The notes beneath the pieces are model-generated. The model saw only the letters and a list, made by a program, of their open reading frames with translations. It was not told where the DNA came from and searched no databases. 64,000 nt of DNA from Candidatus Jorgensenbacteria bacterium (GTDB taxonomy: Bacteria; Patescibacteriota; Minisyncoccia; UBA6257; GWB1-50-10): positions 39,838 through 103,837 of the forward strand of contig DRGK01000017.1 in assembly GCA_011050075.1 (NCBI GenBank), written 5' to 3'. Below, in pieces: positions 2,981 to 58,342 of this stretch. The position numbers and the translations under genes were made by a program. How positions within the stretch are numbered: position 1 is the stretch's first letter; the number at the start of each line of letters is the position of its first letter.

Positions 2981-3053
2981 GGCCCCATCGTCTAGTGGCT
3001 TAGGACGCTGCCCTCTCACGGCAGAAACCGGGGTTCGACTCCCCGTGGGGTCA
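2981..3053 (+). tRNA. tRNA-Glu (anticodon CTC)
   Basis: Cloverleaf: acceptor GGCCCCA/TGGGGTC, anticodon loop CTCTCAC, T-loop GGTTCGACTCC; no encoded CCA. Confidence 0.85.
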
Positions 3054-3060
3054 CAGTCAT

Positions 3061-3107: not shown

Positions 3108-3464
3108 TTGAGGATAATGATAACTATGAGAGCTATACTACAAGACAGGACACTTCTTATATTTATTGGGCTCACATTCGCGTTTTTGCTGGCGAGTGTG
3201 ATACTGGTCTACGTATATATTAATAACTTGTCATATCCTCTGGTCTTACACTTCAATCCATACTATGGCGTTGATCTCATGGGCGCGTCAATTGATGTGT
3301 GGGGAATAATTATTATGGGAGCAGTTGTCATTGGTGTTAATATGGCGGTGGGTGCTATGCTCTTTTATCGTGAGCGTATCATGACACATATATTGGGAGC
3401 GGTAAGTGTTATGGTCGCGCTCTTAACCTTGATTAGCGTGGGGAACATTATTGCACTCAACTAA
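3108..3464 (+). CDS. Small integral membrane protein (3 predicted TM helices), hypothetical
   Basis: 118-aa ORF, hydrophobic segments, overlaps the rmuC start (operon-like). Confidence 0.5.
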   Translation: MRIMITMRAILQDRTLLIFIGLTFAFLLASVILVYVYINNLSYPLVLHFNPYYGVDLMGASIDVWGIIIMGAVVIGVNMAVGAMLFYRERIMTHILGAVSVMVALLTLISVGNIIALN

Positions 3465-4494
3465 TACTATGAATGTAGAAACATTGCTCATCATCGTACT
3501 TTCAGCAGTCATACTGGGTTTTGGTGGATTGTTTTACGTGCTTCTATATCGGCGCAATGAAAAACCAAAGGAAAACGAACAGCCATTTTTACTGTTACAG
3601 AATGAGATGCAGGACATTAGGAAGACGATGCGTGAGACACTTGAGACACAGTTTGGGGAATCAAAGAAGCTTATTAAAGATGTTACGAAGCAGCTTACCG
3701 AGGTGCAGGAAACAAACAAACAGGTATTTAATATTACTGACCAGCTGCGCAATCTTGAGCAGGTATTCAAGAATCAGAAGCAGCGGGGGAGTATTGGTGA
3801 AGCGGGACTGGAGCTTGTACTGAGCAACACATTATCTCCGGACGCATATGAGATGCAGCACACTTTTTCTAATGGTACGGTGGTTGATGCGGTTATCATA
3901 ACAAAAGAGGGTATGATCCCGGTTGATGCAAAGTTTTCTCTGGACAACTATATCCGTATTATGGAAGAGGAAGACGAGGAGAAGCGGAAGGTTCTTGAAA
4001 AGGAGTTCAGGAATGACCTCAAGAGACGGATTGACGAAACGGCAAAGTATATACAACCAAAGGAAGGAACGCTTCCGTTTGCATTTATGTATATACCGGC
4101 AGAGCCGATATACTATGATCTACTGGTCAATAAAATTGGTGCGATCAAGTCAAACACGAGGAGCTTGATCGATTACGCGTATATTGATAAGCATGTGATG
4201 GTCGTTTCACCTACGACTTTCTCAGCATATCTGCAGTCGGTGCTGTATGGTTTCCGCGCTTTTAAGATTGAGGAGTCAGCAAAAGAGATTGGGAAAAGTG
4301 TTGAAAAACTTGGACGGCATATCGGTGCGTATGAAGAGTACTATCGAAAACTTGGTAATTCATTAGGGACGACGGTAAGCCACTATAACGCTGCATACAA
4401 AGAATTGAAGAAGATCGATAAAGACGTGCTGCGTATCTCAAGTACGTCTGCAGAAATAGAACCATTGGAGCTGGAAAAACCACAAGAAGAATAA
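3451..4494 (+). CDS. rmuC: DNA recombination protein RmuC
   Basis: N-terminal TM, long coiled-coil (EMQDIRKTMRETLETQ…), C-terminal RmuC-like domain (…YIDKHVMVVSPTTFSAYLQSV…). Confidence 0.65.
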   Translation: MHSTNTMNVETLLIIVLSAVILGFGGLFYVLLYRRNEKPKENEQPFLLLQNEMQDIRKTMRETLETQFGESKKLIKDVTKQLTEVQETNKQVFNITDQLRNLEQVFKNQKQRGSIGEAGLELVLSNTLSPDAYEMQHTFSNGTVVDAVIITKEGMIPVDAKFSLDNYIRIMEEEDEEKRKVLEKEFRNDLKRRIDETAKYIQPKEGTLPFAFMYIPAEPIYYDLLVNKIGAIKSNTRSLIDYAYIDKHVMVVSPTTFSAYLQSVLYGFRAFKIEESAKEIGKSVEKLGRHIGAYEEYYRKLGNSLGTTVSHYNAAYKELKKIDKDVLRISSTSAEIEPLELEKPQEE

Positions 4495-25695: not shown

Positions 25696-25839
25696 TGCGT
25701 TTTGTTCCCATAACGTACTCAGTAATCATAATTACTGAACGATGCGTTTGCAGCAAAATTGCACTGTAGCCCCTCGCTTTGCTCGGGATGATTGAAATTC
25801 TATGCTTTGCCCTTGGGCTCAGCATGAATTTCTAATCAG

Positions 25840-25910
25840 CTGCCGGGGAAGGAATCGAACCCTCATTACCGCCTCCAAAGGGCGATGTCCTACCATTAGA
25901 CGACCCGGCA
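25840..25910 (-). tRNA. tRNA-Gln (anticodon TTG)
   Basis: Reverse complement reads TGCCGGGTCGTCTAATGGTAGGACATCGCCCTTTGGAGGCGGTAATGAGGGTTCGATTCCTTCCCCGGCAG; anticodon loop CTTTGGA. Confidence 0.8.
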
Positions 25911-47033: not shown

Positions 47034-47350
47034 GTATAGAACAACCAATACAGGAACCGTCACCAATGGATGCTTTCCGTCAAGAACTTGAAGAATTTCG
47101 TTCAGCAGAGCAAAAAGAAGGAACCGCAAAACATCTTTCAATGTCGAAAGACAGGGAGCCCGTTGATTTCAATCTGCTCACTGAGGAAGATATGGGCATC
47201 TGGGAAAGATGTAAAGCAGGTGAACTGACGCGCAATGATATCGAAATGTATAAAGATAGTATTCCGGAGGAAGAGGTTGATCGAAAAGAATTTGCGGCTT
47301 TTGTGGTCCACAAATGGATGGAGCAGATGTATAAGGAGGGTAAACTATAG
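47030..47350 (+). CDS. Acidic hypothetical protein
   Basis: 106 aa, overlaps the htpX stop; no recognisable motifs. Confidence 0.4.
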   Translation: MSIEQPIQEPSPMDAFRQELEEFRSAEQKEGTAKHLSMSKDREPVDFNLLTEEDMGIWERCKAGELTRNDIEMYKDSIPEEEVDRKEFAAFVVHKWMEQMYKEGKL

Positions 47351-47434
47351 GAAGGGTGCCAGAGTGGTCCAATGGAACAGCTTGGAAAGCTGTGGCTCGA
47401 AAGGGTCTCGTGGGTTCGAATCCCACCCCTTCCG
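47350..47434 (+). tRNA. tRNA-Ser (anticodon GGA), long variable arm
   Basis: GGAAGGGTGCCAGAGTGG…anticodon loop TTGGAAA…long variable arm…GTGGGTTCGAATCCCACCCCTTCCG. Confidence 0.8.
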
Positions 47435-47570
47435 CAGACTGCTTTCCGCCACATTATTTTATAGTGTGTTGGAAAGTGATCTATGGGGTGGAGTTCGAAC
47501 CAGTGAGAATCTTCCCTATTTGTCTAAGAGCGAAGCGATTAGTTACAAACAGCAATGCCGCTCGTAGCGG

Positions 47571-53443: not shown

Positions 53444-53527
53444 GCCCAGGTGTCGGAACTGGTAGACGAGCTGGCTTGAGGGGCCAGTGAGCGCAAGCTC
53501 GTGCGGGTTCGACTCCCGCCCTGGGCA
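53444..53527 (+). tRNA. tRNA-Leu (anticodon GAG)
   Basis: GCCCAGGTG…anticodon loop TTGAGGG…long variable arm…GCGGGTTCGACTCCCGCCCTGGGCA. Confidence 0.8.
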
Positions 53528-53533
53528 CAACTT

Positions 53534-54006: not shown

Positions 54007-54079
54007 GCCGGTGTAGCTCAGTTGGCAGAGCAGCTGTTTTGTAAACAGCAGGTCGTGGGTTCGAATCCCTCCGCCGGCT
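54007..54079 (+). tRNA. tRNA-Thr (anticodon TGT)
   Basis: GCCGGTGTAGCTCAGTTGGCAGAGC…anticodon loop TTTGTAA…GGTTCGAATCC…CGCCGGCT. Confidence 0.8.
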
Positions 54080-54150
54080 CATATACTTCTTTCAAAATTG
54101 ACGGTACACTACAACAACTGTCCATATATACCCACGTATCTCTCTCATTT

Positions 54151-54223
54151 GCCCACGTAGCTCAGTTGGCAGAGCATTTGCATGGTAAGCAAAAGGTCGT
54201 CGGTTCGATTCCGACCGTGGGCT
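54151..54223 (+). tRNA. tRNA-Thr (anticodon GGT)
   Basis: GCCCACGTAGCTCAGTTGGCAGAGC…anticodon loop ATGGTAA…GTCGGTTCGATTCCGACCGTGGGCT. Confidence 0.8.
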
Positions 54224-54265
54224 CACTAATTTTGTATTTCCATGAAAAGTTTGTAAGATAAGGAT

Positions 54266-54446: not shown

Positions 54447-54518
54447 GGGGATATGGTGTAACCGGTAGCACGAGAGTCTCCAAAACTCTTAGTCTAGGTT
54501 CGAGTCCTAGTATCCCCG
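54447..54518 (+). tRNA. tRNA-Trp (anticodon CCA)
   Basis: GGGGATATGGTGTAACCGGTAGCAC…anticodon loop CTCCAAA…AGGTTCGAGTCCTAGTATCCCCG. Confidence 0.8.
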
Positions 54519-54526
54519 CATCAACT

Positions 54527-55210
54527 ATGCATAAAAATACTGTTGTGTTATCTGTTGGAGGATCACTGATTGCACCCGATGGTGTGAACGTTGATTTTTT
54601 AGAGGAACTTCGTGATTTTATTTTAGAACGTACACGGAATGGTGAACAATTCGTTATTGTGTGCGGTGGTGGGGGAATGGCACGCGCATATCAAAAAGCA
54701 GCACGCGCACTGAAAATATCAGACCAGTCGGAGCTTGACTGGATTGGTATCCATGCAACACGCCTAAACGCATATCTCATAAAAGCTCTCTTTAGTAATG
54801 ACGCATACCCAAACGTCATTACTGACCCGACACAGAAAATTGATTTCAAAGAATCAGTACTCATCGGCGCTGGCTGGAAACCAGGATGGAGCACGGACTA
54901 TATCGCCATACTGTTAGCAGAACAGCTGCACGCAAAACGAGTAATAAATCTTACAAACGTTGACTATGTGTATGATAAGAACCCGAACGAACATACCGAT
55001 GCACAGCCGCTTAAAGAACTCTCATGGAAACAGTTTCAAGAGCTATTCGGAACCGAGTGGCAACCGGGACTGCATGCTCCCTTTGATCCTATCGCCGGAA
55101 CAAAGGCACAAGCGCTCAATATGGAAGTTGCGATCATAAACGGAGCACACCTTGACCGTATAGCAACTTATCTGGACACAAAGACATGTGTCGGCACTCT
55201 AATTCAGTAA
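54527..55210 (+). CDS. pyrH: UMP kinase, archaeal-type (amino-acid-kinase family)
   Basis: VVLSVGGSLIAPDG…FVIVCGGGGMARAYQKAARAL…DWIGIHATRLNAYLIKAL aligns with the archaeal UMPK pattern (…VVVGGGKLAR…IGIxxTRxNA…). Confidence 0.65.
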   Translation: MHKNTVVLSVGGSLIAPDGVNVDFLEELRDFILERTRNGEQFVIVCGGGGMARAYQKAARALKISDQSELDWIGIHATRLNAYLIKALFSNDAYPNVITDPTQKIDFKESVLIGAGWKPGWSTDYIAILLAEQLHAKRVINLTNVDYVYDKNPNEHTDAQPLKELSWKQFQELFGTEWQPGLHAPFDPIAGTKAQALNMEVAIINGAHLDRIATYLDTKTCVGTLIQ

Positions 55211-55234: not shown

Positions 55235-55600
55235 ATGAAACTGGGGTCACAAAAATCAAAAGAGGGTCGTTTCTGGGCATCGTTGTTTGATTTTTCATTC
55301 AAGCACTTTGTTACCATTCGTATCTTTGTCATTATCTACTGGGCAAATATTATACTCGCTGGCGCACTTGGTGTATTGACGATTATTGGGGGTTTTCGAG
55401 ATTCTACCGGCTTAGGAATCCTCGCAGTCATCGTTGCACCACTTCTCTTCCTGGCATACATTCTATTCCTGCGCATCATACTTGAAGCGATTGCGATGCT
55501 CTTTCATATAGGCGATCATGTAAAAGCTATTGCTGAGCACTTAGAGCCAGGAACGAAACGGATAGAAGAGTACGAAGTATCAGACGTTGAAGACAAATAA
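55235..55600 (+). CDS. Small membrane protein, hypothetical
   Basis: 121 aa, 2-3 TM, acidic C-terminus. Confidence 0.45.
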   Translation: MKLGSQKSKEGRFWASLFDFSFKHFVTIRIFVIIYWANIILAGALGVLTIIGGFRDSTGLGILAVIVAPLLFLAYILFLRIILEAIAMLFHIGDHVKAIAEHLEPGTKRIEEYEVSDVEDK

Positions 55601-55623
55601 ATAAAAAGGATAAGGACAAATCT

Positions 55624-55649
55624 GAAAACCGCCTTTGAAGGCGGTTTTC
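55624..55649. terminator. Bidirectional terminator between convergent genes
   Basis: GAAAACCGCCTTtgAAGGCGGTTTTC. Confidence 0.7.
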
Positions 55650-55674
55650 AGAATCTAAACAGAAGAAATTTATC

Positions 55675-56463
55675 TTACCTTCTACCGCGACTACGCTCAC
55701 TATTATCATCACATTCACCCAGAGTATCCCCGTGATTGAGGTGAGTGTTCACTGAAGAAGCATTGACTGTTATTGTCTGAGAAGCGGACTGATTTCCGGA
55801 CGGGATATGACAAATAGTAACCGTCTTTCCTCCGTGCGCCACGGTAAGGATTATGTAATCAACCGCGGTGTCGTCCTGCACGTAGACATCAAGAGCATTG
55901 TCTGCGTTCATGAAGGAGATAATATTCGTATCGCCTTGCCCATCAGGAGACAGATTCGCGAGATTCAAATTAAAGGTCTGGTCGCTTCCTCCGATCCACG
56001 GCTGTCCGAATAAGGCGGTAAGCCCTAAACCCCAGGAACTGAAAGCGTCATTGATCCCCGTAAGCTCAAGATGAATGGCGTCGTTTGATACTAAACTACT
56101 GCCACCCGCGAACATACGAATCTCGAGTGTTGCTGCTTGAATGTCTTCGGGCAGGCCGGTAAATGTATGACCAAAGACCCTGTTGACGGCCTTATCGTCA
56201 AACTGTCTGTGAGGGAACAAGGCCCTGTTACCGCCGCCATATGGATCCATCTTAAGCAGAAGGTCGGCACTTGGCGAGGTTGGCTCGAATGGCGGGACAA
56301 AGTTGTCATCTATCCCGGCCGTAAAGACAGTAACGGTTCCAGTGTGCTGTCCTGCCTGCACTGTACTGAAAGCCGCCGCCGACAATACTACTATAAGCAT
56401 TAATCCAACTATGGTAGCTACTCGGTAAGTAGTAGAGAAATCTCTTGTTTTTTGTATATGCAT
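55675..56463 (-). CDS. Secreted hypothetical protein, GC-rich (~52%), probably horizontally acquired
   Basis: Signal anchor (VATIVGLMLIVVLSAAAFS); no known motifs; GC clearly above background; next to a foreign tRNA-Leu fragment. Confidence 0.45.
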   Translation of the reverse strand: MHIQKTRDFSTTYRVATIVGLMLIVVLSAAAFSTVQAGQHTGTVTVFTAGIDDNFVPPFEPTSPSADLLLKMDPYGGGNRALFPHRQFDDKAVNRVFGHTFTGLPEDIQAATLEIRMFAGGSSLVSNDAIHLELTGINDAFSSWGLGLTALFGQPWIGGSDQTFNLNLANLSPDGQGDTNIISFMNADNALDVYVQDDTAVDYIILTVAHGGKTVTICHIPSGNQSASQTITVNASSVNTHLNHGDTLGECDDNSERSRGRR

Positions 56464-56607
56464 GTTCTTTTAAGTAAAAATGATTATTTATTACTTATCG
56501 ACCTTTGACATAGACCTTATCGCAAATATGATTTGGATGTCAATGGATTAAAAAAATAGCCAAAAAATATAATTCTTGAATTTCTGCTTGCTTGACTTTT
56601 CCTAACT

Positions 56608-56666
56608 GGTGCCCGGGGTGGGACTCAAACCCATATGAACTTACGTCCACAGCATTTTGAGTGCCG
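56608..56666 (-). other. 3' fragment of a foreign tRNA-Leu(CAA)-like gene (anticodon stem to CCA), putative integration-site remnant
   Basis: Reverse complement CGGCA-CTCAAAA-TGCTG…ATGGGTTTGAGTCCCA CCCGGGC A CCA: anticodon arm, long variable arm, T-arm, 3' acceptor and an encoded CCA, but no matching 5' acceptor or D-arm; every intact tRNA in the window lacks an encoded CCA. Confidence 0.4.
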
Positions 56667-56751
56667 CGCATCCGCGCTCTTTTTTGTTGACAAAAACGCA
56701 TCTGCCACTATGCTACCAACAGTACTTTCACAACACATAAAGGAAGATTGT

Positions 56752-57384
56752 ATGGGACGCGTGAAACTTATTCTCTTTGACTGGAATGGTACATTGCTTA
56801 ATGACACGATGGCGGTGACGTGGCCGTCAGTCAAGGCACTCTTCGCTGATTTCAGTATTCCGCCTCCGGATATGTTAACCTTCATGAAAGAGGTTCAGGA
56901 AGCGGACGGTAACTATGTGGTACCCTTACGCTCCCGGGGAGCTGAAGTGTCCACGGAAGAGTTTCGGGAACGGTATGCCGATTATTATACAGAGCGCATG
57001 GAACATGCCCGATTGTTCAATGATGTTATACCAACATTCAATGAACTGGTATCAAAGGATGTACAACTCGGACTGGTAACGGCGCAGAGGTCACATCTCA
57101 TTAATCCGTTCCTGAAAAAATATGGTTTGATGCGGTATTTCTCTTGTCTTGAAACCGAGCAGGTGGACAAAACAGGGGCCATAAACTGGATTGTGGGTAT
57201 GAGTCATTTCCGGGCAGAAGAATGTTGGTATGTGGGAGATCAACCATCCGATGTACGATATGCACAGAAAGCGCAGGTGGTTTCAATCGCTTTATTAACC
57301 GATGGTATAGACGAGCATCTATTTGATGCGACTGAACCCGACTTTATCATACGTAAACTCGGAGAACTAATAGAGCTCATATAA
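56752..57384 (+). CDS. HAD-superfamily hydrolase
   Basis: Motif I LILFDWNGTLL; HAD core; start taken at MGRVKLILFDW (the longer ORF-track start overlaps the tRNA fragment). Confidence 0.65.
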   Translation: MGRVKLILFDWNGTLLNDTMAVTWPSVKALFADFSIPPPDMLTFMKEVQEADGNYVVPLRSRGAEVSTEEFRERYADYYTERMEHARLFNDVIPTFNELVSKDVQLGLVTAQRSHLINPFLKKYGLMRYFSCLETEQVDKTGAINWIVGMSHFRAEECWYVGDQPSDVRYAQKAQVVSIALLTDGIDEHLFDATEPDFIIRKLGELIELI

Positions 57385-57416
57385 AAAGAGAGGGTTTAAA
57401 ACCCTCTCTTTTCTTT
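57383..57416 (+). terminator. Rho-independent terminator
   Basis: AAAAAGAGAGGGTTTaaaACCCTCTCTTTTCTTT. Confidence 0.7.
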
Positions 57417-57445
57417 ATAGTATGCATATGGCATCATCAAAAAGA

Positions 57446-57529
57446 GCCGAGGTGGCGGAACTGGCAGACGCGCTGGACTCAAAATCCAGTGATGGCAACA
57501 TCGTGAGGGTTCGAGTCCCTCCCTCGGCA
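57446..57529 (+). tRNA. tRNA-Leu (anticodon CAA)
   Basis: GCCGAGGTGGCGGAACTGGCAGACGCG CTGGA-CTCAAAA-TCCAG long variable arm GAGGGTTCGAGTCCCTCCCTCGGCA. Confidence 0.8.
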
Positions 57530-57538
57530 CACACCATT

Positions 57539-58342
57539 ATGGCACGCGTTATTACTATATTTAATCAAAAGGGTGGGGTAGGGAAGACCACAACAGCAAT
57601 GAACCTCGCTGCATACTTAGCATTCCTTGGCAAGAAGACGCTCCTGATCGATTTCGACCCACAGTTCAATGCAAGTGTCGGTTTTGGCATTACGTACGAC
57701 CCGCGTCATGAAACCGTGTATCAGGCGCTGTTTAACAAACAACCGGTGGAACAGGTTGTGAAGCAAACATACCTCTCTAATCTGGACATCATTCCATCAT
57801 CCGCAGACCTCTCGGGGGCGCTTGTTGAATTAGTAAATGTTCCGAACCGAGAACGATTCCTGCGCGGACTTGTTGATAAGATACGCTCGTACTATGACTT
57901 CATTTTAATAGACATGGGACCGAGTCTAAATTTGCTCACCATTAACGGACTCATCGCTGCCGATGAAGTACTCATACCAGTACAGTGTGAGTACTATAGC
58001 TTGGAAGGACTCAACCAACTGCTTAAGACCATTGACCTTATTAAGAACAATATGGGACATCCACTAAAAATTGCCGGTGCATTACTGACAATGTATGACG
58101 AGCGTGAAGAGCTCTCACGCAACGTCGCACAGAAAATTCACGAGCGGTTCCCGCACTACATATACCGCACACGCATACCGCGTTCTACCAGCCTAGCCGA
58201 AGCACCAAGCTTAAAGCGTCCCATTATTCTCTATGACCCACAGGGATTAGGCGCGCAGGCATATGAAGCGCTGGCACGGGAGCTCATTAGTCAGGAACAA
58301 GCTGTACCGTTGTCCACAGATATGGATGACGAACCTGTTTGA
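57539..58342 (+). CDS. parA: Chromosome partitioning ATPase ParA/Soj
   Basis: MARVITIFNQKGGVGKTTT (deviant Walker A); start trimmed to exclude the upstream tRNA. Confidence 0.85.
   Translation: MARVITIFNQKGGVGKTTTAMNLAAYLAFLGKKTLLIDFDPQFNASVGFGITYDPRHETVYQALFNKQPVEQVVKQTYLSNLDIIPSSADLSGALVELVNVPNRERFLRGLVDKIRSYYDFILIDMGPSLNLLTINGLIAADEVLIPVQCEYYSLEGLNQLLKTIDLIKNNMGHPLKIAGALLTMYDEREELSRNVAQKIHERFPHYIYRTRIPRSTSLAEAPSLKRPIILYDPQGLGAQAYEALARELISQEQAVPLSTDMDDEPV

Follow-up and report, generated by a model that had tools for sequence, protein, structure and literature searches.

What is the 3' part of a tRNA-Leu(CAA) gene doing in a genome that holds an intact gene of the same specificity less than one kilobase away? 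This question is raised by a 64,000-nucleotide (nt) stretch of Candidatus Jorgensenbacteria DNA (contig DRGK01000017.1; the whole stretch that was analysed is called the window below), where the fragment lies on the minus strand at 56607-56669, between a gene for a 262-amino-acid (aa) protein and a gene for a hydrolase of the HAD superfamily. A preliminary description, made from the sequence alone, had recognized the fragment and its strand, with one end misplaced by a single base (56608), and had read it as the attachment-site copy of a foreign mobile element with the 262-aa gene as its cargo. Our analysis places the fragment, which we call the relic, in the ordinary category of decaying tRNA pseudogenes, from which nothing material sets it apart. 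It is probably the remnant of a former tRNA-Leu(CAA) gene and the scar of a DNA insertion at that gene.

Structure and decay of the relic

The relic runs from the 3' strand of the D-stem and G26 to A73 and an encoded CCA. Its 5' part consists of G26, an anticodon stem (CGGCA/TGCTG) and the loop CTCAAAA with the anticodon CAA at 56659-56657, its 3' part of a variable arm (TGGAC-GTAA-GTTCA), a T arm ((A)TGGG-TTTGAGT-CCCA(C)), the 3' strand of the acceptor stem (CCCGGGC), A73 and the CCA at 56609-56607. In blastn, positions 56609-56669 agree in 56 of 61 bases (91.8%, E 1e-15) with the intact tRNA-Leu(CAA) gene of a Jorgensenbacteria-like relative (L049), so that the relic is not a chance match. 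The closest sequence to the relic is therefore a functional gene at the equivalent place and on the same strand in a related bacterium, not a phage or distant tRNA.

All five differences from this gene are transitions (56665 A>G, 56643 C>T, 56638 C>T, 56634 G>A and 56627 C>T), spread over the T-loop, the 49-65 pair, the anticodon stem and the variable arm. Two of them turn stem pairs into G-U, one breaks the 49-65 pair and one changes C56 of the T-loop, a near-invariant base in tRNAs, to T. In its T-loop and T-stem the relic thus fails as a member of the working tRNAs: position 56 is T (56627) and A49 is mismatched with C65 (56634), where the genes of relatives have C and G. A metagenome scan with a 22-mer from the anticodon and variable arm returned seven intact tRNA-Leu(CAA) genes, all with C where the relic has T, and also recovered the window's own haplotype (L056).

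A matching 5' acceptor strand and a D-arm are absent, as had been described, and the searches for a complete tRNA were all negative. ARAGORN called no tRNA at the relic at default or at relaxed thresholds. The Rfam tRNA model (RF00005) gave 19.7 bits (E 0.13 in a 401-nt search), below its gathering score of 29, and reached even this match only by recruiting GGTAGCATAGTGG from the promoter region of the HAD gene across a 33-nt gap; with this borrowed 5' strand, two of the seven acceptor pairs are Watson-Crick. We considered the possibility of a complete tRNA with an odd 5' half and rejected it, since the acceptor does not pair with GGTAGCATAGTGG, which lies at 56705-56717, antisense to the -10 region of the HAD promoter, and is the same in another haplotype (L060). 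The minimum-free-energy fold of the relic RNA is not a cloverleaf, into which the intact genes do fold, and it is no better than that of shuffled sequences (z -1.4).

The history of the relic can be read by comparison with this other haplotype, a 1.3-kb contig that is 88.8% identical to the window over 56520-57416 and stops inside a tRNA-Leu(CAA) gene, of which it holds 65 nt. Its relic agrees with that of the window in the 5' junction (GAGCGCGGATGCGC), in the CCA and in the downstream flank; in the window the junction, GAGCGCGGAT, occupies 56670-56680 on the minus strand. As the junction is identical in the two, the truncation is older than the split of the haplotypes. Of the five positions changed in the window, the L060 relic retains the ancestral base at three; about seven further substitutions are private to it, and its anticodon loop is gone. 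No other segment differs as much between the haplotypes as the relic (56608-56669), at 69.8% identity, compared with 86.4% for the promoter region of the 262-aa gene, 89.3% for the HAD coding sequence, 96.9% for the HAD terminator and 98.6% (70 of 71) for the HAD promoter and 5' untranslated region (56681-56751). The shared truncation and this ranking show that the relic has drifted freely since the split, and they rule out a working tRNA-like element. Like ordinary tRNA pseudogenes, it is clearly homologous to a working tRNA, lacks essential parts and accumulates substitutions without constraint. The relic itself has no functional role; its value is that of a marker that dates and locates a replacement at the junction of tRNA-Leu(CAA) and parA.

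The host is a small-genome bacterium of the Candidate Phyla Radiation (CPR). The database entry with 99% identity to the 262-aa protein is named Candidatus Jorgensenbacteria, and contigs identical to the window locus come from the marine-sediment run SRR1555744. As the same arrangement was recovered in three independent assemblies (L001, L002 and L056), another sample included, it is not an assembly artefact.

The interval between DUF4282 and parA

Syntenic loci in relatives were located through a neighbouring UMP-kinase-like gene. A sister strain (L046/L047) has proteins 93-100% identical to those of the window, with DNA identities of 98.7% in parA and 94.8% from pyrH to DUF4282; L049 is more distant, with proteins 58-81% identical. 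The haplotypes of L047 and of the window (L056) are both present in the metagenome assembly SDBV01. In blastn, colinearity with L047 is lost at 55582, 18 nt before the stop codon of DUF4282, and regained at 57538, 1 nt before the ATG of parA; the segment from the 3' tip of DUF4282 to the parA start codon (55583-57537) differs from L047 throughout. From DUF4282 to parA, the window has the 262-aa gene (minus), the relic (minus), the HAD gene (plus) and the intact tRNA-Leu(CAA) gene (plus); the sister strain a 242-aa gene (minus) and tRNA-Leu(CAA) (minus); L049 a HAD gene (plus) 33% identical to that of the window, purH (minus) and tRNA-Leu(CAA) (minus); and L060 the promoter of the 262-aa gene (minus), the relic (minus), the HAD gene (plus), a 97-aa open reading frame (minus) and tRNA-Leu(CAA) (minus). 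The interval is a rearrangement hot spot: strains that co-occur and are otherwise 95-99% identical carry different genes here, and an essential tRNA varies between them in both sequence and orientation. Comparison of the homologous locus, as the preliminary description had proposed, thus did reveal variability, but the mobile gene of the sister genomes is a LAGLIDADG endonuclease and not an integrase.

In L047, in L049 and L055, and in L059, the tRNA-Leu(CAA) gene stands on the strand of the relic and is divergent from parA. The tRNA-Leu(CAA) of L060 is that of L047 (100% over the 65 nt held), and the relic lies about 1.1 kb downstream of it in direct orientation, with the 97-aa open reading frame, a remnant of about 40 nt from the 3' end of the endonuclease gene, and the HAD gene in between. 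The last 30 nt or so of the HAD gene persist in L047 together with its terminator, the gene being otherwise gone, which makes L047 a deletion derivative of an L060-like arrangement.

The intact and presumably functional tRNA-Leu(CAA) gene of the window (57446-57530, plus strand) is called by ARAGORN, scores 59.6 bits with Rfam and folds as a cloverleaf. Five other tRNAs are 98-100% identical between the window and the sister strain, but the tRNA-Leu(CAA) genes agree in only 65 of 87 positions (25% difference between window 57446-57530 and L046 11864-11946), so that at least one of the two alleles must have been replaced. The relic belongs to neither: it matches the L047/L060 allele in 45 of 63 positions and the resident allele, which had rightly been described as different, in 44 of 61 over the shared part. 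The alleles look mosaic, the D-arm of L047 being that of L059 and its 5' acceptor strand that of L049. The 5' flank of the intact gene (57417-57445, plus) is homologous to the tRNA 5' flank of relatives and inverted relative to parA; its local alignment score was reached by none of 1000 shuffles in the comparison with L049 and by 18 of 1000 with L047, and its blastn matches to relatives are on the opposite strand only. The right anchor of the variable segment, parA (57539-58342, plus; Pfam match), is 98.7% identical to L047 DNA from 57538 onwards and starts 8 nt after the intact tRNA. An upstream region of about 56 nt seen in L047 has been lost here (57531-57541), and parA is presumably now transcribed from the HAD or the tRNA promoter.

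The 242-aa gene of the sister strain (1870-2598 in L047; also in L046 and L048) begins 3 nt after tRNA-Leu(CAA) and encodes a LAGLIDADG endonuclease, according to Pfam LAGLIDADG_3 (25.3 bits, cut-off 22.5) and to phrog_4645 'endonuclease' (6e-31). A homologue that is 46.5% identical (L057, 2071-2715) lies 37 nt after the tRNA-Leu(CAA) gene of an unrelated contig, which places such a gene beside this tRNA in two lineages. About 20 nt beyond the stop codon of the L057 gene stands TCGATTCCTACTCTCGGCACCA (2007-2028, 22 nt), a T-loop-to-CCA end with a different acceptor, which we identify by its exact T-loop-to-CCA spacing. A distant phage homologue of the endonuclease splits a DNA polymerase gene, behaviour typical of homing endonucleases.

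Origin of the relic

The following course of events would account for these arrangements. Ancestrally, tRNA-Leu(CAA) would have stood on the minus strand, divergent from parA, as the allele still used in related Jorgensenbacteria-like genomes, and the stretch downstream of it, towards DUF4282, would have been the hot spot of insertion and replacement. DNA with the HAD gene would then have been inserted at the tRNA gene of an ancestor; judging by the sister haplotypes, this DNA may also have held the LAGLIDADG endonuclease gene and a second tRNA-Leu(CAA). The new copy would have taken over the function. Of the old gene, the 5' acceptor strand and D-arm would have disappeared, and the 3' part would have been left between the inserted DNA and the former downstream neighbour, the 262-aa gene. 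Subsequently, the scar would have drifted neutrally and the window strain would have lost the endonuclease region, its working tRNA-Leu(CAA) being a third allele, inverted and abutting parA. The order of events, the insertion as cause of the truncation and the enzyme responsible are what we infer here. Most likely, the inserted DNA lay on the HAD side of the relic and not on the side of the 262-aa gene.

Several observations weigh against this account. None of the genes within 10 kb on either side of the relic has an integrase or recombinase domain, whether degraded or intact, although a degraded integrase had been thought worth looking for. Neither is there an endonuclease gene or remnant in the window (tblastn with the L047 protein; best E 2.4, elsewhere), and the Rfam model did not match the 3' piece of L057, which is too short for it. 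The intact tRNA of the window is inverted with respect to the relic, with which it forms a 67-nt, 72% inverted repeat around the HAD gene, and only L060, a contig that breaks off within the tRNA, shows an intact gene with a direct 3' repeat. The 5' edge of the relic can be taken for a native flank as well as for a recombination junction: MAFFT can match it to tRNA positions 1-2 and 10-14 if 16 nt are missing internally, and AAAAAAGA followed by GC beside the relic resembles, by eye, the flank of the L047 gene and that of the resident gene, a similarity that is not significant in shuffle tests (p ~0.03-0.4). Finally, the relic is 92% identical to the L049 tRNA, but other tRNAs of those genomes are only 65-76% identical. 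Simple vertical descent does not predict this, and the allele may once have come laterally. It may either be unusually conserved or have moved between CPR lineages, the source in the latter case being a related CPR bacterium and not a phage. To this extent the term "foreign" may hold, and the relic is no more likely to be an import than to be what occupied the locus earlier.

The other argument for foreignness, the encoded CCA, is weak. The window has eight intact tRNA genes by ARAGORN (2981-3054, 25839-25910, 47350-47435, 53444-53528, 54007-54080, 54151-54224, 54447-54519 and 57446-57530) and seven at the Rfam gathering score, instead of the ten counted earlier, and it is true that none of the eight encodes CCA. 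All eight have C straight after the discriminator base, and seven then have A. Since C74 is already present in every tRNA gene of the window, only 'CA' would have to arise by chance (1/16). Moreover, among intact CPR-type tRNA-Leu(CAA) genes that share this anticodon and variable arm, roughly one in two has an encoded CCA. In L047 and L049, tRNA-Leu(CAA) likewise reads discriminator-C-A, a pattern that may be a 3'-processing signal.

That the relic is the attachment-site copy of a mobile element that brought the 262-aa gene, its CCA stemming from the donor, we regard as unlikely. The relic is co-oriented with the 262-aa gene and lies about 145 nt upstream of it, and the classical integrase model makes a tRNA end beside an island part of the element. 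The contexts of the 262-aa family vary, and in L007 (GAG) and L063 (TAA) its members directly follow intact tRNA-Leu genes. These tRNA genes have no CCA, however, and in the window, L007 and L063, three lineages, the 262-aa gene is found near rplS, RluA and tRNA-Leu(GAG), which suits mobile cargo no better than a gene long resident where tRNAs are numerous and rearrangements frequent. The anomalous similarity of the relic to the L049 tRNA and its CCA would suit an import, as would the 23-mer of T-arm and acceptor that the relic shares with 5'-less tRNA-Leu 3' fragments on phage contigs; yet viral contigs yielded no member of the 262-aa family, an integrase is missing, the tRNA end does not recur on the far side of the 262-aa gene, and the GC content at third codon positions (GC3) of that gene is ordinary. 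The geometry of L060 is at odds with this reading as well, since the DNA bracketed there by relic and tRNA consists of the HAD gene and the endonuclease remnant, on the 5' side of the relic, with the 262-aa gene outside. What stands of the mobile-element origin is thus a relic of DNA insertion or replacement at a tRNA gene, not derived from the resident gene; its polarity, its cargo and the weight given to the CCA do not stand.

A local inverted duplication of tRNA-Leu(CAA) through an error of replication or recombination, with no mobile element and with decay of one copy, would explain the inverted repeat around the HAD gene as well as the lack of an endonuclease in the window and of an integrase within 10 kb. 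It is nonetheless improbable, as the copies are only 72% identical with compensatory differences in the stems and the relic is 92% identical to the gene of another lineage, which speaks for different alleles; in addition, the L060 relic accompanies a different and directly oriented intact allele, and the sister strain has yet other content at the same place. We give hardly any credence to the idea that the relic is a leader element for the 262-aa gene or a functional, truncated tRNA-like RNA without a D-arm. Here one could point to the CCA end, to the junction conserved in L060 and to the 5' GCGCGG and 3' CCGGGC of both haplotypes, which could pair as a terminal stem, but the relic is the fastest-changing segment of the locus, its L060 copy has no anticodon loop, its window copy has T in place of C56 and the A49-C65 mismatch, its fold does not stand out from shuffles, and other members of the 262-aa family have no such sequence upstream.

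As to the agent behind the insertion at tRNA-Leu(CAA), the visible selfish gene at the DUF4282-parA locus is, in the sister haplotypes, a putative homing endonuclease, found intact in L046/L047/L048 and as a remnant in L060. One can tentatively imagine that a CPR LAGLIDADG family homes to tRNA-Leu(CAA), the cassette bringing a cleavage-resistant tRNA and sometimes cargo such as the HAD gene, with the old 3' end left behind, although we think this somewhat doubtful. The mosaic of alleles is the only support for cleavage and gene conversion, and it is indirect. If homing did occur, it would constitute an integrase-free route to tRNA-linked islets, and it would explain the three tRNA-Leu(CAA) alleles in near-identical strains together with the dead one in the window. 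If the adjacent endonuclease drives the variation, the known targets of CPR LAGLIDADG endonucleases would extend from rRNA genes to a tRNA gene. The association of endonuclease and tRNA-Leu(CAA) might be the only part of this locus of possible specialist interest.

Fragments of tRNA-Leu 3' ends are also found elsewhere. L054 (470-609; also L058) has an intact tRNA-Leu(CAA) behind which a 25-nt tRNA 3' end, CCA included, occurs twice more at a spacing of 59 nt, with a GC hairpin between the copies and a different acceptor strand in the last; they may be scars of serial integrations, or a tandem repeat. The IMG/VR contigs L041 (~3430-3493), L042 and L043 carry 3' fragments of tRNA-Leu(TAA) without a 5' half, which are probable attP sites; they share 23 nt of T-arm and acceptor with the relic, and one ends in CCA. 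This generic 23-mer is all that the viral contigs have in common with the locus, as searches of them for the exact anticodon and variable arm of the relic, for the endonuclease and the 262-aa protein, and for the other two tRNA-Leu(CAA) alleles found nothing. Together, the phage fragments and the ends in L054 and L057 identify tRNA-Leu 3' ends as recurrent recombination sites.

Three known systems invite comparison. The ends of genomic islands in tRNA genes are marked by displaced tRNA-gene fragments (Islander database, PMC4383910). The relic resembles these in having no 5' half, in starting near the anticodon stem and in lying at a distance from an intact gene for the same tRNA, and L060 resembles the islands in the direct orientation of its copies and the non-core DNA between them. 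Unlike islands, the locus has no tyrosine integrase, the bracketed DNA is only ~1.1-1.6 kb long (HAD gene and 97-aa open reading frame with endonuclease remnant), the copies are ~70% and not nearly identical, and the intact copy of the window is inverted. SegB of phage T4 is a free-standing homing endonuclease in a tRNA gene cluster (PMC2330249). As there, the endonuclease gene of the sister haplotypes lies directly beside a tRNA gene, and the adjoining tRNA allele differs from that of near-identical genomes, as co-conversion of flanking markers predicts; here, in contrast, the enzyme is of the LAGLIDADG and not the GIY-YIG type, the host is a CPR bacterium and not a phage, the window has no endonuclease, and homing is putative. 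In CPR bacteria, insertion sequences of rRNA genes hold LAGLIDADG endonucleases inside the 16S and 23S genes, in a report whose main text does not mention tRNA (PMC11270868). Superfamily and host group are the same, with LAGLIDADG_3 in CPR, but our gene is free-standing, 3-37 nt downstream of tRNA-Leu(CAA).

Neighbouring genes and signals

The 262-aa gene (55675-56463, minus) lies directly downstream of the relic. It had been called an orphan, but it has 59 homologues, with 70-81% identity in related bacteria; neither Pfam nor PHROG nor NCBIfam gave a match for the protein. The family alignment has conserved motifs and an N-terminus that looks like a signal peptide or membrane anchor, so that the earlier designation as secreted appears sound. 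The C-terminal motif of the family, C-H-I-P-x-G-N-P-x(4)-T-I-T-V-x(5)-V-x(2)-H-L-x-H-G-D-T-L-G-x-C, also matches the ends of larger, otherwise unrelated proteins (P0057-P0059). The GC content of the gene is 48.8% and not ~52%. Compared with the 43.0% of the window, this corresponds to a z of 1.8 and lies in the top 2% of windows, and the GC3 resembles that of parA; as the rise is modest and the GC3 ordinary, we rejected GC content as evidence of foreignness. A suitable annotation would be that of a conserved secreted protein with no assigned function, neither an orphan nor island cargo.

An alignment of upstream regions of family members from different contexts delimits the promoter and leader of the gene (56464-56575, minus). 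Antisense within the leader, at 56505-56532 (plus), there is a promoter-like site (TTGACA-16-TATGAT, 11/12) that points through the relic, in antisense, to a hairpin at 56666-56685; L004 has a similar site. It may give rise to a small antisense transcript or be part of a bidirectional promoter.

We found no tRNA relics upstream of other genes of the family: alignments with L003 and L004 were not significant, and the Rfam model detected none. A 27-nt stretch of L005 (253-279) is similar to the 5' junction and anticodon loop of the relic (1 of 500 shuffles), but a neutral relic could not outlast the divergence involved, and we treat this stretch as unexplained or due to chance. In L003 (5827-5855), a 29-nt piece that resembles a tRNA 5' half, GCACCCCTAGCTCAGTGGTAGAGCGTCCC, lies upstream of the family gene on the opposite strand. 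Several contigs with family members break 200-400 nt upstream of the gene.

The HAD gene (56752-57384, plus; 210 aa; Pfam HAD_2, 2.7e-17), between the relic and the intact tRNA, is rare. Among 5.8 billion proteins only two are close to it (E<1e-20); the single close homologue from another haplotype, 84% identical, is encoded on L060. A scan of 185,579 species genomes produced no close relative, only proteins with 22-31% identity in unrelated bacteria. The HAD protein at the equivalent place in L049 is 33% identical, in comparison with 58-81% for flanking orthologues. A sigma-70-like promoter (TTGACA-16-TATGCT, 56687-56714, plus) is predicted upstream of the gene and an intrinsic terminator, the one kept in L047, after it (57384-57412, plus). 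The hairpin at 56666-56685 (plus), GCGC-ATCC-GCGC followed by six T, overlaps the 5' edge of the relic and looks terminator-like. It is perfectly conserved in L060, where the stem has 7 bp, like an intrinsic terminator upstream of a promoter.

The UMP-kinase-like gene (54527-55210 in the window) is of archaeal type: beyond two CPR relatives (93% and 58% identity), its best homologues are about 50% identical and are named as UMP kinases of DPANN or other archaea.

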